Shown: positions 2,432 to 63,764 of the stretch, piece by piece
Numbering within the stretch: position 1 is the first letter of the stretch
Layout: each line of letters opens with the position of its first letter
Assembly (NCBI GenBank): GCA_964016885.1
Contig: OZ024752.1
Location: forward strand, 41,044,001 to 41,108,000
DNA length: 64,000 nt
Direction: 5' to 3'
DNA from: Eledone cirrhosa
Taxonomy: Eukaryota
Translations under genes and position numbers: made by a program
Notes under the pieces: model-generated
Databases searched by the model: none
Seen by the model: the letters and a program-made list of their open reading frames with translations, nothing else
Told to the model about the DNA's origin: nothing

Positions 2432-2611
2432 AGGAGCGAGTAATACCCCGACGGCTGAGCTCAAGCCGTTTCGACGGCGAATTAGCCGTCGAAACGGCTT
2501 GAGCTCAGCCGTCGGGGTCCTACTCGTTCCTAAAAAACCACTCTACTACCTTAAGTATTGAGTACTTTGGTGCGTTATGGTCCACCTGGTTCCTTACCAC
2601 ATTTCCTTCGT
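2432..2611 (+). mobile_element. Family A fold-back element (Penelope-like terminus with hammerhead 3' half) in (TA)n
   Basis: Inverted arms centred near 2480; GAAA-CGGCT-TGAGCTC-AGCCG-TC; tail with TATTGAGTAC ending TTCCTTCGT|(TA)n. Confidence 0.8.
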
Positions 2612-2709
2612 TATATATATATATATATATATATATATATATATATATATATATATATATATATATATATATATATATATATATATATATATATATATAT
2701 ATATATATA

Positions 2710-3058
2710 TCAGAGTGTTCCGTCTCCTAGAATTCTGCAACCCTGGTGGTATCCAGTGATGTTGACTTGTTCTTCTTTTTAGTAAATGACATCTTGGTTA
2801 AGAGAGTGGGACTGGCTTTGTGCAGTGCCTTTGCTCACTATAAAAGCTTCACGGCACAGGCATTGCTTCTGCACTTGTCGTCACATGGTACCATGGGCCC
2901 AGCACTATGTGTCAATAATTGTCACAAGTGTAGTGTTTGTACCAGAGTTTTCAAGTCGCTGGCTGGACTAAAAAGTCACACTCGCTCAGCGCATCGGTAA
3001 GGGTTCTCCTACATGGATATAAAGTAGTGGCCGTACTCGAAAACGAGTTGGCAGCCAC
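2710..3058 (+). mobile_element. RTE-type non-autonomous retroelement, 5' truncated, with a short 5' inversion (2710-2738)
   Basis: Encodes [23 protein letters not shown], a C-terminal C2H2 finger typical of RTE-group ORFs; 3' hairpin ACTCG-AAAA-CGAGT then (TA)n; homologous to 5598-6205. Confidence 0.75.
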
Positions 3059-3639
3059 TATATATATATATATATATATATATATATATATATATATATG
3101 TGTGTGTGTGTGTGTGTGTGTGTATATATATATATTTATGTATATATATATGTATATATACATATATATATATATAGGAATGAAAATGGCGTGCTGTGTT
3201 GTTGCATGTGATATATATATAAATAGTTTTCCTCTCTTTAGGTTGCCTCACCATTCGTGTTTGTTTACCTGTCTCTCTTTCTCCACTCAACTCTTTTTAT
3301 CCCAATAACTTAATTTAGTTATTGTATTGCCCTGGCCTGAGGTATATGGTCTGTAATGCGAAGAAATACCTATGATGGCTAGTAGACCACTGATGAGGGA
3401 TAGTCCTGGCTTCTATTTCTCATTCTTCATTTTATTTATATATATATATATATATACATATATACATGTATGTATGTATATATATATAGAGAGAGAGAGA
3501 GATATGTGTGTGTGTGAGTGTGTGAGTATGTGTGTGTATGTGTGTGTGTATGTATCTGCTACACCTCTAGGAAAAAAGGATGTGACATTCATGAGAAAGT
3601 CTGTTATATAAAGAGATTAGAGAGATGTAGTGAATAAGT

Positions 3640-4790
3640 GGGGCGAGGGAGAGAGAGAGAGATATATATATATAAAGAGAAAGAGAGAGAGAGAGAGAGA
3701 GAGAGAGAGAGAGAGAGAGAGAGAGAGAGAGAGAGAGAGAGAGAGATAAGGAGAAAAGAGAGAGAGAGAGAGAGAGAGAGGGAGAGAGTCAGAGACAGAG
3801 TGAGAGAGAGAGGGACAAAGAGAGAGAGGGAGAGAGAGAGACAGAGAGAGATATAGAAAGAGGGAGGCAGCTAGAGAGAGCAAGAGGGAGAGAGAGAGAG
3901 AGAGAGAGAGAGAGAGAGACAGAGAGAGATATATATATAAAGAGAAAAGAGAGAGAGAGAGAGTCAGAGACAGAGTGAGAGAGAGAGGGACAAAGACAGA
4001 GAGGGAGAAGGAGAGAGAGAGACAGAGAGAGAGATAGAAAGAAGGAGGGAGCTAGACAGAGAGAGAGAGAGAGAGAGAGAGAGAGAGAGAGAGAGAGAGA
4101 GAGCTAGGGAGAGAGAGAGAGAGAGAAGGAGAGAGAGAGAGAGTGAGAGAGAGAGAGAGAGCTAGGGAGGAAAGAGGGAGGGAGCTAGAGAGAGAGAGTG
4201 AGAGGGAGAGAGAGAGAGAGAGAGAGAGACTCTATATATGGAATAACAATAATACAGAAATAGCTCCACACAAACCGTCTAAAGCATTGAAACCAGACAA
4301 TTTAAATCTATTTCTCGAAAATACATTTCTTTTAATTATCTTACTTCTCCTCCTTTATTTTCTCGCCTACTTTCATCTCTGATACTCTCTCTCTCACACT
4401 TTTTCTCCCTTTCTCTCTCGCTATTTCTCTCTCTGTCACTCTCTCTCTCTTTCTCCTCTTTCTCTCTCTCGCCTCTCCCTCTCTCTCTTCTCTCTCACTC
4501 TTCCTCTCCCCTTCTTTCTCTCTCTGTCACTCTCTCTCTCCTCTCTCTCTCGCCTATCTCTCTCTCTCCTATCCCACTCTTCCTCTCCCATTCTCTCTCT
4601 CTCTGTGTCACTCTCTCTCTCTTCTCTCTTTATCTCTCTCTCTCTTCCTCTCACTTTCTCTCTCTCTCTGTCACTCTCTCTCTCTCTCTCTCGCCTGTCT
4701 CTCTCTCCTCTCTCACTCTTACTCACCCTTTCTCTCTCTCGCCTGTCTCTCTCTCCTCTCTCACTCTTACTCTCCCTTTCTCTCTCTCTA
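3640..4790. repeat. (GA)n-rich tract (3640-4230) followed by a (CT)n-rich tract (4380-4790)
   Basis: Direct reading of degenerate purine and pyrimidine microsatellites. Confidence 0.9.
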
Positions 4791-4884
4791 CAGAGAAGAT
4801 GTAGAAGAGGAAAAACAGAAAGATATTTACAAAAGGAGCGCTTGTGTATGTTTGATCAGCCATTTTGACGAAGTGATATATATA

Positions 4885-5100
4885 CGATTTTGTCTTGCAA
4901 TATTCTTGATGTGAAATCATGTGTTGAAATATATATTGTTACATTTGGGGCTGTTCAGTTCAACTTTATTATTATTATTCGTTCAACAAAGTTCTTTCGT
5001 CACACTTCCTGTGCCCTCTTCAATTTGTTCTTCACTGTTCCTTCTCGGCTTTCTGTTATTATTTTGTTTGGTCCAGGAAAGAAGAGGGTTAATCAATAAT
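4885..5100 (-). mobile_element. Degenerate family N-like hammerhead element
   Basis: Minus strand TTGAAGA-GGGCAC...GTGAC-GAAA-GAAC-TT near 4985-5025; TGAAATCATGTGTTGAAA is shared with 21675-21693. Confidence 0.55.
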
Positions 5101-61861: not shown

Positions 61862-62339
61862 CGACTGTCGGCTAAAATGTTCATGGACTGAAAAGTTCAT
61901 AAGCTGACCAAGATACTCTCATGGAATGACTAAATGAGGTTTATTTTTTAACATAGTCCCTAGGAGAGGAAACAATGCACTTATTAATTAATAAGAAAAG
62001 TTGAAATTAATGCTTGAAAGATTTAACAGCCTTAGCATCATTCCTTCATAGACTGACCAAGATACTCTGATGGAATGACCAAATGAGATTTATTTCTCAA
62101 CATAGTCCCTAGAAAGAAACAATGCAGTTTTTTTTATTTGAGGGTTGACTAAAAAGTTCATAAGCTGACCAAGATACTCTAATAGAATGAACAAATGAGA
62201 TTTATTTCTCAATATAGTCACTAGAAAGAAACAATGCAGTTATTAATAAAAAGAGTTGAAATTAATGCATGCAAGATTTCACAGCTCTAGCATCACTCGG
62301 TCTTCTGAGTCAGTCTATGAACGTTTCAACTGACCCTCG
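61862..62339. mobile_element. Mariner-type MITE with three internal repeats
   Basis: Right TIR TCAGTCTATGAACGTTTCAACTGACCCTCG|TA, degenerate left TIR after TA; CTGACCAAGATACTCT occurs three times. Confidence 0.65.
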
Positions 62340-62616
62340 TATAATCGACTAAAATAAATAAATTAATAAATATATATATATATATATATTTATTAATTTA
62401 TTTTTTTAAATAAGACTCCAGTTGCATATATATATATATATATATATATATATGCAACTGGAGTCTTATTTAAAAAAATATATATATATTTATTTGGTTC
62501 CTTTACCGGTTTCGCAGTTCTTCTGCTTTTCAAAAGTAGAGTTGAGATGGAGGGTCTGTGGTTTTTCTCACATCTCTCTCTCTATATATATATATATATA
62601 TTTATTAATTTATTTA

Positions 62617-62652
62617 CTTTTGAAAAGCAGAAAAACTGCGAAACCGGTAAAG
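62617..62652 (+). ncRNA. Hammerhead variant with U3-A8 core (family M); mirror copy on minus at about 62501-62536
   Basis: CTT-TTGAAAA-GCAG-AAAAA-CTGC-GAAA-CCGG-TA-AAG. Confidence 0.6.
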
Positions 62653-62891
62653 GAACCAAATATATATATATATTGTTTTATAAATAAGACTTTTCGATTT
62701 CATCTTTTTTTCTTTATACTTTCACTCGTGTAGGACACCTCGGTTATTTTTCATTCTGTAAAAAAAAACCTCACTTTCTAATATATATATATATATATAT
62801 ATTATGGACACTACCGTATATTTTGGTAGATTTATCTACATATATATATATATATATTTATTAATTTATATATATAATTTATATATATATA

Positions 62892-63158
62892 TTAGTAAAA
62901 AGGAAAAGAAAATGCTGACAAATTTTTTCCAGTGAAGTATAGTTTAATTAGAAATAAGTATAAATTAGTAATAAGTATTGGTTAATATTCAGTTTTAGTT
63001 TTAAGTTTTTACCGGTTGCGCATTTCTAATGCTTTTCAAAAAAATTAAAACTAAAACTGAATACTAACCAATACTTATTACTAATTTATACTTATTCCTA
63101 ATTAAACTATTTTTCACTGGGAAAAATTTGTCAGCATTTTCTTTTCCTTTTTACTAAT
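62892..63158. mobile_element. Family L fold-back element
   Basis: About 110 bp arms; minus TTGAAAA-GCATT-AGA-AATGC-GCAA-CCGG-TA near 63007-63042. Confidence 0.75.
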
Positions 63159-63764
63159 ATATCACAACTCGTGTGTCACACCTCTATTTTTTTAAATATA
63201 TATATATATATATATATATATATATATATATATATATATATATATATATATATATATATACATATATATATATATATATATATATATATATATATATATA
63301 TATATATATATATATATATGCAAAAGTTCTATTTAAAATTGTTGGGATACAACAAGTAAATATTTTATAACTGATATAAAGCACTCGACAAGTTTTTGGA
63401 GTAGATATACGATATTAAATAAATGGAAACTATATTTATAAAACCATATATATATATATATATATATATATATATATATATATATATATATATATATATA
63501 TATATATATAAACTTTTGAAATCGATGTCTAGGTATGACTGAAAAAAAATATATTAATACGTTGAAGTAACAAAAAAATATTTAGAAATTTTGCAAACGC
63601 TGCAGATGTGAAGAGAAATCATTTAAAATGTTGTAGCAGTTTCTATTTGTTGGGTAACGCCATAATTGTTAATAGTAGTTGGTGTAACACGACTGCAGCT
63701 GTTAACAGCAGCTGTTCAAAGACAGATGCAGCTGTTGTAAAATGACTTGCAGCTGTTAAGAAGG

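Follow-up and report, generated by a model that had tools for sequence, protein, structure and literature searches.

Closest described systems

Penelope-like retrotransposons (PLEs) of the Hydra clade that carry hammerhead ribozymes and target (TA)n, including Hydra-1_Obim, have been described by Craig et al. 2021 (PMC8557442), and thousands of solo minimal hammerheads derived from truncated PLEs by Cervera and De la Pena 2014. For Poseidon, the element protein was reported to cut and extend both strands, with two internal start sites bounding the tail (Frangieh 2024, PMC11167929). We analysed a 64-kb window (the whole stretch of 64,000 nucleotides from Eledone cirrhosa) rich in small inserts within (TA)n tracts, which are very probably the 5'-truncated ends (pseudo-LTRs, pLTRs) of PLEs, at least six of them of the Hydra clade. 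The bulk of these inserts is known biology confirmed; since such elements are already on record in both of these papers, the surprise expressed in an earlier note on this DNA was too high for the bulk.

The Hydra-type families share with the clade as described in PMC8557442 the RW[KR], DKT, CxCX5C, CxxC, and CxH motifs, the (TA)n target, a type I hammerhead close to the 3' end, in which U.U frequently forms the base of stem II, and the arrangement of 5' truncation, inverted copy, and tail. They differ in number (at least six families against one Octopus family in Craig et al. 2021), in tail length (65–90 nt against the published 30–40), and in the 3' UTRs of families B and E, which contain 1–2 kb of mixed TA/TG repeat. 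The tail hairpin described below and the U4A and C3.A8 cores are absent from the main text of Craig et al. 2021, where 'hairpin' and 'stem-loop' give 0 matches. Like the solo hammerheads described by Cervera and De la Pena 2014, those found here have palindromic stem III, predicted dimers, the U3-A8 variant, and opposite-strand pairs 100–700 bp apart; unlike them, stem III is long, or the stem II arms are very long, in several families. Cores of the U4A and C3.A8 kinds were not seen among those earlier motifs. The two 3' ends bounding the tail and the ORF overlapping the pLTR resemble those of Poseidon_Ac (Frangieh et al. 2024, PMC11167929), which belongs to another clade and starts in an AC-rich stem-loop, in contrast to the RCUC/GAGY bulged hairpin located between both ends in the Hydra families.

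Inserts and hammerheads in the window

Self-BLAST and BLAST with family representatives identified about 46 loci of about 17 hammerhead-related families within (TA)n in the window, in line with the many non-coding (TA)n-bounded inserts of about 15 families seen by the earlier note. A strict scan of the window gave 11 type I hammerhead matches, compared with a mean of 0.01 and a maximum of 1 in 100 block-wise dinucleotide shuffles, whereas bare CUGANGA was observed only 38 times (about 15 expected). The four regions singled out for cleavage assays (55181-55231, 21477-21516, 21729-21773, and 22028-22094) are all intact type I folds, the last of which (22094-22028) sits on the minus strand, and the palindromic stem III motifs CAATTG, CCGG, GAGCTC, and CTAG were all found. 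The claim that most inserts fold into type I hammerheads was, however, overstated: a complete ribozyme was detected by the scanners at 13 of about 46 loci, or about 16 when three judged by eye are added, and the CUGANGA half is present at none of the nine loci of family A/A2, family A being the commonest. Several families have the non-canonical cores U3-A8, C3.A8, and U4A, which had been missed, as had the fact that the motif at 3299-3401 is not of type I. In an Rfam scan of the window, no hammerhead appeared among the 150 of 810 rows listed, which were swamped by microsatellite-like miRNA models.

Six further TA-flanked loci (2711-3058, 5599-5939, 19961-20059, 29594-29693, 20599-20871, and 40887-41061) belong to three hammerhead-free families, H, N, and RTE, which we take to be LINE-like. 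They were rejected as hammerhead elements on their LINE-like C-terminal frames, read by eye; Pfam gave nothing above the cut-off for the RTE-like frame.

Links to Penelope-like ORFs

Copies in the same genome join nine families to RT/GIY-YIG ORFs, six of the Hydra clade and three of Neptune/Nematis type, and the exact sequences of the window inserts are the pLTRs of such ORFs in full-length relatives. What had been an indirect assignment to PLE termini is now direct. No PLE ORF lies in the window, as had been noted, with the exception of the first 19–30 codons that overlap the tails.

The family B insert (55097..55316, plus strand) contains an inverted short arm, two full type I hammerheads (55163-55113 on the minus and 55181-55231 on the plus strand), a tail hairpin, and the first codons of an ORF whose frame starts from 55227 on the plus strand. 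In locus L061 the window sequence lies directly upstream of, and overlaps, a 759-aa ORF, and the order pLTR–ORF–pLTR is seen in L062, L063, and L066; a first look at the genome gave 51,442 candidates for the family B endonuclease region, 150 of which were scored. Other copies are at 8785-8884, 9017-9185, 39876-40071, 40559-40669, and 43053-43235. The family E insert (20897..21159, minus strand; other copies, 42896-42940 and 58819-59174) is 100% identical to the pLTR of an intact element with the order pLTR–714 aa–pLTR (L191), and 40 of 40 scored copies are 100% identical to the window query. Family A (2430..2614, plus strand) consists of an inverted short arm and a sense arm with tail, with only the GAAA–stem III–UC half of the hammerhead. 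Its tail continues into the ORF in L194, and in L090 and five further loci the endonuclease end lies some 1.2 kb upstream (ORF-linked loci: L090, L105, L108, L120, L123, L127, and L194). BLAST located other copies at 5413-5521, 13628-13680, 13741-13936, 29070-29184, 40296-40485, 48947-49153, and 59697-59810, and the relative A2 at 41094-41284.

Family K (21343..21627, plus strand) has hammerheads at 21415-21376 (minus) and 21477-21516 (plus) and a tail hairpin at 21554, and at least 13 of 30 loci have an ORF on the same strand that ends some 200 nt upstream. The type I fold of family G (58183..58495, minus strand; fragments, 5349-5396, 59537-59650, and 61406-61486) has a U4A core at 58252; in L228, L242, and L245 an ORF on the same strand ends some 930 nt upstream. 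For family D (21970..22223, minus strand; second copy, 49205-49511), with the hammerhead at 22094-22028 and an opposite-strand tail at 22152-22223, hammerhead and tail are contiguous in L015, and tail and ORF start in L002.

The proteins of the Hydra-type families, judged by motifs, are encoded by a single ORF with RT followed by a C-terminal GIY-YIG, which is intact in B (759 aa, L061) and E (714 aa, L191), assembled from overlapping pieces in A, G, and K, and represented by RT pieces only in D. The RWK motif occurs in E, and RWR in A, B, G, and D; DKG is changed to DKT in A, B, E, and G, which also have a CxCX5C linker, no CCHH, and C-terminal CxxC and CxH. The linker of family K reads CSCRKPEAC in several loci. 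The (TA)n target and a hammerhead near the 3' end are present, with variant cores in A and G. The assignment to Hydra is based on these motifs and on by-eye comparison with published alignments; Pfam gave no RT or GIY-YIG match at E 0.1 for the L061 ORF. A Naiad protein was rejected, as the endonuclease is C-terminal. The at least six Hydra families are 35–55% identical in the aligned protein parts, and some are intact and young.

Families J, X, and I2 also have same-strand ORFs upstream. The family J protein has a CX4CXXC linker, YVDD, and YIG, and that of I2, a partial match, CXXC pairs and YVG, against the CX2-5CXXC linker and the GIY-YIG with internal Cys and His that mark this type; by these sequence features, the three are assigned to Neptune/Nematis-type PLEs, i.e., to one of these two clades. 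The family J insert (21632..21940, plus strand) consists of an inverted tail, the hammerhead at 21729-21773, and a short end, and is a single insertion with an internal TA run (21773-21784); its relatives are at 57786-58000, 4886-5022, and, as family X, 49526-49882. Family I2/I (50806..50998, minus strand; relative, 45157-45315) has a minimal hammerhead with a weak stem I.

Among the loci examined, families D2, F, FQ, M, O, Z, P, and V yielded no ORF partner. Family D2 (19314..19630, minus strand; other copies, 59192-59488 and 63320-63445) is related to D and has the tail hairpin, with an ORF link that is suggestive only (L059). Family FQ (62374..62795) contains U3-A8-core hammerheads at 62533 (minus) and 62620 (plus), and the related family F is found at 9994-10187 and 62892-63195. 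Family O (22304..22695, plus strand) has a type I hammerhead at 22524-22647 whose stem II arm is about 95 nt long. The minimal hammerhead of family M is degenerate at 28559..28721 (minus strand) and missing from the copies at 20139-20236 and 54266-54347, and half-ribozymes are present in families Z (23008-23164) and P (27757-27860 and 59862-59902).

Truncated ends and a proposed two-site priming

The 3' ends of the inserts are fixed at two positions and adjoin (TA)n, and the 5' ends are variable. All 44 two-armed inserts of families A, B, K, and G combine one short and one long end, a count in which one arm is fixed for the loci fetched with long-tail queries; family E has no two-armed insert below 600 bp. 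The Hydra tails have in common a covarying bulged hairpin (RCUC/GAGY) placed between the two 3' ends, which is not shown by families J, X, FQ, M, and V. The pairing of long with short ends would fit two-site priming. The elements are likely to insert into (TA)n by means of the GIY-YIG endonuclease and reverse transcriptase that they themselves encode. Judging from the hairpin position alone, the protein may bind the conserved bulged hairpin in the tail of a tandem transcript and then cut both strands of the TA tract; cDNA would be primed from each cut strand at two sites flanking the hairpin, as shown for the protein of Poseidon, an element of another clade. Both cDNAs would stall early, often within long hammerhead stems, and be joined into a mirror-image stub.

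Because nine families are connected with RT/GIY-YIG ORFs through their genomic copies, the inserts are read as truncated inverted pLTR ends and not as retrozymes, i.e., non-autonomous, self-cleaving elements that circularise and re-insert as discrete monomers or tandems, which is a very improbable account of the small inserts. The earlier note had left both options open as 'PLE termini or retrozyme-like'; the former holds through the ORF-linked relatives, and the latter fails for those families because their 5' ends are not constant, the catalytic core is missing from most copies of family A, and the partners are autonomous. Families A, B, D, E, G, K, J, X, and I2 have such variable ends and partners and no short-unit tandem arrays, and exact matches of family A number 37,698 for the 3' half and 4,345 for the core half (a rough ratio, as the patterns differ). 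Animal retrozymes derived from PLE pLTRs are described by Li et al. 2026 (bioRxiv 10.64898/2026.07.22.740005), and family V alone fits a retrozyme: its longest ATG ORF is 32–48 aa, no PLE ORF is attached in 30 loci, and head-to-tail units of 531, 630, 634, and 637 nt occur at four places among these loci. Non-coding tandem units were found in V only, not in A, B, D, E, G, K, or J. Abundant circular RNA is a further retrozyme trait; among sequencing runs listed for a family B query, none was of RNA. Even so, V ends at two 3' positions as PLEs do, some 70 and 120 nt away from the motif (25 of the 30 loci), and its ribozyme is not type I; described non-LTR retrozymes are non-coding and head-to-tail like V but carry a type I hammerhead in each unit, in contrast to the S-G-C order in V. 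An origin of the palindromes as MITEs, or as fold-back artefacts driven by microsatellites, with hammerheads present by chance, has practically no probability, for although inverted arms with TA flanks look like Tc1/mariner MITEs, the arms have unequal fixed ends and variable centres, 11 hammerheads stand against 0.01 in shuffles, and direct continuity with RT-EN ORFs refutes it.

Although the literature describes a small clade, Hydra PLEs make up a major part of this cephalopod genome, and one that is still young. The long-plus-short rule and the conserved hairpin lead to a minimal RNA and an in vitro prediction with the intact 714–759 aa protein, and bear on how PLE inverted and tail structures arise.

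A possible requirement for the type I hammerheads

If the hammerheads were essential processing signals, each active family would have to self-cleave to free unit-length RNA. Among the loci fetched, more than 30 motif variants preserve stems I–III while differing in sequence, and U3-A8 is a known active covariant (PMC4209133; PMC3088659), as expected of such signals. However, a pattern search of the genome matched 18,163 family G copies with the U4A core, position 4 being A in 100 of 100 first matches listed, and in family A C3 is opposite A8 in 20 of 100 first matches listed, with A8 fixed by the search pattern. Moreover, the 3' ends lie 20–90 nt or more beyond the cut site and none at the site itself, and hammerhead cleavage was reported not to be needed in vitro by the Poseidon protein (Frangieh 2024, PMC11167929). 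We therefore consider an essential role unlikely. The hammerheads would rather be carried along. Cleavage probably requires dimers or the aid of protein, and some families can likely be copied without a working hammerhead.

In free-energy folds, the active fold is the minimum only for family E. Dimers are predicted to be favoured over a pair of monomers by 5–10 kcal/mol; as strand swapping is open to any hairpin, this is weak evidence. C3.A8 was also considered as a broken core throughout family A and was rejected, the 27 of 29 copies having come from a biased query, against 20 of 100 among the matches listed. The natural U4A and C3.A8 subfamilies provide ready-made controls for whether PLE hammerheads matter. 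Within the literature searched, short of subscription papers and bioRxiv supplements, we found no U4A PLE hammerhead and no Hydra tail hairpin.

Family V and a candidate S-G-C hammerhead

Family V (3181..3436, plus strand) is non-coding and tandem-forming, with units of 530–640 nt and 8,509 matches in the genome; the insert has its short end at the TA tract and an apparent inverted tail at 3181-3210, compared by eye with L283. It is a separate passenger, probably related to Naiad, and its ribozyme is of a different type that the earlier note did not recognise. The motif at 3299..3401 (plus strand) is predicted to be a non-circularly permuted hammerhead with a four-way junction in place of stem II. 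It comprises helix a (5' strand, 3299; 3' strand, 3398-3401), block S (3341-3352, with the predicted cut after 3346), block G (GAAA, 3363-3366), and block C (CUGAUGA, 3390-3396), i.e., all three core blocks in S-G-C order. In an alignment of copies, three of the six stem I pairs change on both sides and 97% are paired; helices a and c, formed with an upstream splint, are 94% and 98% paired. Stem III varies across L061, L073, L175, and published Naiads.

The S-G-C order and pseudoknotted core resemble type-SGC HRIMA-1 and its variants as described by Eckert et al. 2023 (PMC10085705). Those come from metatranscriptomes, have a normal stem II, which a linker of typically 3 nt connects with stem I, and cleave in vitro, whereas V is genomic, in an animal retroelement, has a 5-nt linker and one stem II pair or none, with a predicted four-way junction cap using the 5' splint, and is known from its sequence and predicted fold. 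By eye, the order is also visible in three of eight published Naiad ends, the 3' UTRs of Naiad_Obim, _Ovul, and _Esco ('HHR_half_core'). In 30 V loci of 3 kb, no Naiad ORF (N-terminal GIY-YIG plus RT) was seen attached. A literature search, short of subscription papers, bioRxiv supplements, and the supplementary figures of Eckert 2023, returned no SGC hammerhead in animals.

The motif might instead be a fold conserved for binding protein, or a ribozyme that has decayed, in either case without cleavage, which is possible, if the less probable reading. Stem II as defined by Eckert 2023 does not form: at most one pair lies between blocks G and C, and the strands after CUGAUGA and before GAAA both pair with the upstream splint. 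That sole pair, 10.1-11.1, is standard in only 22 of 28 V copies and unpaired in Naiad_Ovul (by eye), so that the proposal of constant pairing was rejected; the stem III invariance in the V alignment was imposed by the search pattern, and in five of the eight Naiad ends no such motif was seen by eye. Against loss of cleavage, all three core blocks are kept, the cut-site base is A or C in 100 of 100 matches listed (the pattern allowed T, not G), stems I, a, b, and d covary, and an unrelated family (L175) and the three Naiads rebuild stems I and III with other sequences. The predicted S-G-C hammerhead, if true, would evade all standard descriptors, bear on why Naiads seem hammerhead-free, and bring animal chromosomes, alongside environmental RNA, into the range of non-circular RNA permutation. 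We lean slightly towards a joint picture, in which an animal S-G-C hammerhead with a splinted four-way junction for stem II would be the ribozyme that Naiads seemed to lack and would drive a retrozyme-like family of more than 8,000 copies, a single conserved bulged hairpin would set the two sites from which Hydra elements prime both cut strands, and these elements could reach 18,000 copies despite a crippled ribozyme. A second V copy in the window (27286..27356, plus strand) is truncated and mutated, with blocks G and C only.

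Insert families and type I hammerheads

The window has a GC content of 32% and is dense in microsatellites. Its segments between TA tracts were clustered, with representatives drawn from copies in the 3.0 Gb assembly (1,796 contigs) and loci tallied by hand. This count gave ~46 loci of hammerhead-related inserts in ~17 families: nine loci of A/A2, six of B, four each of G and of J and X together, three each of D2, E, M, and F and FQ together, two each of D, I, P, and V, and one each of K, O, and Z. A strict scan for type I hammerheads returned 11 matches in the window versus 0.01 in 100 shuffles, and pooling three scans places a whole type I ribozyme at 13 loci; families O, X, and I2 add three more as judged by eye. 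The CUGANGA half is absent from all family A loci of the window. The earlier note had described about 15 families of small hammerhead inserts in (TA)n; the inserts and their diversity are borne out, with a whole type I ribozyme found at about 13-16 of the ~46 loci.

Six further TA-flanked loci of the window are LINE-like ends without a hammerhead, their 3′ ends adjoining (TA)n or (ATGT)n (2711-3058, 5599-6228, 20599-20871, 40887-41061, 19961-20059, and 29594-29693). At another such end, fetched from the same genome (L083), a 76-bp terminal unit is tandemly repeated. Stem II arms of ~60-95 nt occur in families O, P, and Z (window 22524-22647; genome loci L069 and L027), and the family Z core, CUGAAAGA, is one base above the usual length.

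Linkage to Penelope-like ORFs

The genome search with family B yielded at least 1,283 candidates, 40 of which were scored; these copies have a fixed 3′ end abutting (TA)n and a variable 5′ start, often with an inverted copy present. Four family B copies adjoin inverted pieces coding for RT or GIY-YIG, and one such piece, used as a query, retrieved 51,442 candidates with open frames of up to 759 aa. At locus L061, the 759-aa ORF is directly preceded by window family B sequence, which extends into it; at L062, L063, and L066, this sequence is found at both ends of the ORF. In family E, L191 consists of a pseudo-LTR (pLTR), an intact 714 aa ORF, and a pLTR. Copies of families A and G at genome loci are likewise joined to RT/GIY-YIG ORFs, as is family K in at least 13 of 30 loci, and family D is joined in two steps, via L015 and L002. 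Where covered, the proteins of A, B, D, E, G, and K contain RW[KR], DKT, CxCX5C, CxxC, and CxH, the marks of the Hydra clade of Penelope-like elements (PLEs) according to Craig et al. 2021 (PMC8557442), and share 35-55% mutual identity. For this clade, the supplement of the same paper reports targeting of (TA)n and the presence of hammerheads, and lists a single Octopus family. The resemblance of the window's PLEs to Hydra-1_Obim, together with the repeat content, suggests a cephalopod genome. Families J and X are the ends of ORFs with a CX4CXXC linker, and I2 is that of a Neptune-like ORF.

The assignment to PLE termini made in the earlier note is therefore proven for the nine families joined to ORFs, and most inserts are new members of an already known type; its alternative, retrozyme-like elements, fails for these nine families and is limited to family V. 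An ORF link was not found for D2, F, FQ, M, O, Z, P, and V in the genome copies examined, and the window contains no PLE ORF past the first codons lying inside tails. As judged from sequence, the new features are a tail hairpin, a strict pairing of long and short ends, amplified variant cores, and, above all, a predicted split-stem S-G-C hammerhead.

At L061:1805-4081 and L194:5410-5560, the open frame begins within the pLTR, immediately downstream of the point of hammerhead cleavage and 45-50 codons ahead of the first conserved Met.

Two 3′ ends and the tail hairpin

The 3′ end of each family comes in two versions: a short one lying 20-45 nt beyond the point of hammerhead cleavage, and a long one that extends another 65-90 nt. 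Both versions are common overall in the window and 286 loci, and in this sample, which is biased to long ends on one arm, all 44 two-armed inserts of <600 bp combine one short and one long end (A, 24; B, 9; G, 8; K, 3; E, 0). According to Frangieh et al. 2024 (PMC11167929), a Poseidon PLE protein cuts the two strands and extends each of them, with initiation at two internal sites of the RNA that bound the tail, and in vitro it does not need hammerhead cleavage. Probably, each cut strand of the TA tract primes cDNA at one of the two sites, and the two cDNAs stall early and are then joined into a two-armed stub.

The 3′ UTRs of families B (L062, L066, L032, and L035) and E (L191:7300-8700) contain 1-2 kb of mixed TA/TG microsatellite, in which small landmarks keep their order across different copies. 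With such tracts inside their 3′ UTRs, the elements would spread TA-rich sequence, their own target.

Between the two 3′ ends, Hydra tails carry a hairpin of the form RCUC-stem-loop-stem-(1-2 nt bulge)-GAGY-RC. A search without a pairing requirement found 317 matches in 28 clusters over 939,873 bases, and five in reversed sequence. At least three inner pairs form in 20 of the 28 clusters, some of which represent one family more than once, versus 3.2 expected from shuffles; the outer pair alternates between A-U and G-C, and the inner stems vary freely. By eye, the hairpin is present in the published Hydra-2_Amil, Hydra-1_Ajap, and Hydra-2_Ajap, weak in Hydra-1_Crog, and absent from Hydra-1_Amil and Hydra-1_Obim, whose ends are shorter; Craig et al. 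2021 (PMC8557442) make no mention of it in their main text. A second copy lies at the tandem junction of L002, and partial second copies in L191 and L194. The position of the hairpin suggests that it may bind the protein of the element.

Whether hammerhead cleavage is needed

Genome-wide, the 3′ half of family A has 37,698 exact matches versus 4,345 for the core half, a rough ratio because the two patterns differ, by which roughly nine in ten copies are predicted to be unable to cleave. With A8 fixed in the core pattern, U3-A8 occurs in 80 and C3.A8 in 20 of the first 100 matches listed. In family G (18,163 matches), position 4 is A in all of the first 100. The C3.A8 and U4A changes should slow cleavage. 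It is unlikely that the hammerhead is essential for every family. U3-A8 is, on the other side, a known active variant (PMC4209133; PMC3088659). Viroid infectivity survives U4C (Perreault 2011), so that low hammerhead activity may suffice.

Family E has a second hammerhead (L191:7526-7632 and L192:1860-1966) that lies ~1.3 kb upstream of, and is 84% identical to, the terminal copy; it has G at the cut site and may be a relic or a dimer partner.

A predicted S-G-C hammerhead in family V

In family V (window 3181-3436, forward strand), GAAA precedes CUGAUGA at 3299-3401, in the order stem III-UH-stem I, then GAAA-stem III, then stem I-CUGAUGA. By the nomenclature of Eckert et al., this candidate belongs to type SGC; a literature search on SGC hammerheads from 2022 on listed Eckert 2023 alone. 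A search with the S-G-C pattern, which fixed stem III and part of helix c and left free stem I, helices a and b, and the stem III extension, gave 8,509 matches and none in the control. Covariation was assessed on 28 copies, namely the window, 23 of 30 new loci (overlapping or truncated ones being dropped), and four earlier loci. A model of 34 pairs leaves 95.3% of cells paired, with both-side changes at 14 pairs (62 cells); when slid, it pairs 24-44%. Shuffles score as high in 0-1 of 500 on four of five measures and in 86 of 500 on the fifth. Stem II is atypical: on either side of the core, the strands pair with a hairpin-containing splint that lies upstream, and a four-way junction is predicted for this arrangement. 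A de novo S-G-C scan returned 47 matches, most of them in loci fetched for the motif, versus none in reversed sequence; it also found a second family in which all stems are different (L175:34-130; L014).

Inspection by eye shows the S-G-C order of family V also in the published 3′ sequences of Naiad_Obim and Naiad_Ovul, with stems AUGG/CCAU, CUGCCC/GGGCAG, and GACACC/GGUGUC, and of Naiad_Esco, with ACUG/CAGU and UUGUUU/AAACAA, and does not show it in five other published Naiad ends. The Ovul and Esco elements carry the flag 'HHR_half_core'. Non-coding and two-thirds pyrimidine, family V forms head-to-tail repeats with a unit length of 531-637 nt and abuts (TA)n at either of two 3′ positions; no ORF joined to it was found in the loci examined. 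Its likely identity is that of a non-autonomous passenger related to Naiad.

Other features of the window

Two tRNA matches on the reverse strand (27125-27197 and 28209-28281; 64.5 and 65.9 bits) lie within a repeated 400-bp unit and may be tRNA genes or a tRNA-headed SINE; the aligned match has the anticodon CCU. The largest repeat cluster (20 loci: 394-605, 1821-2021, 9668-9864, and 17 more) is not TA-bound and resembles a SINE family. Local segments at 33269-33942 and 61886-62298 are internally repeated.
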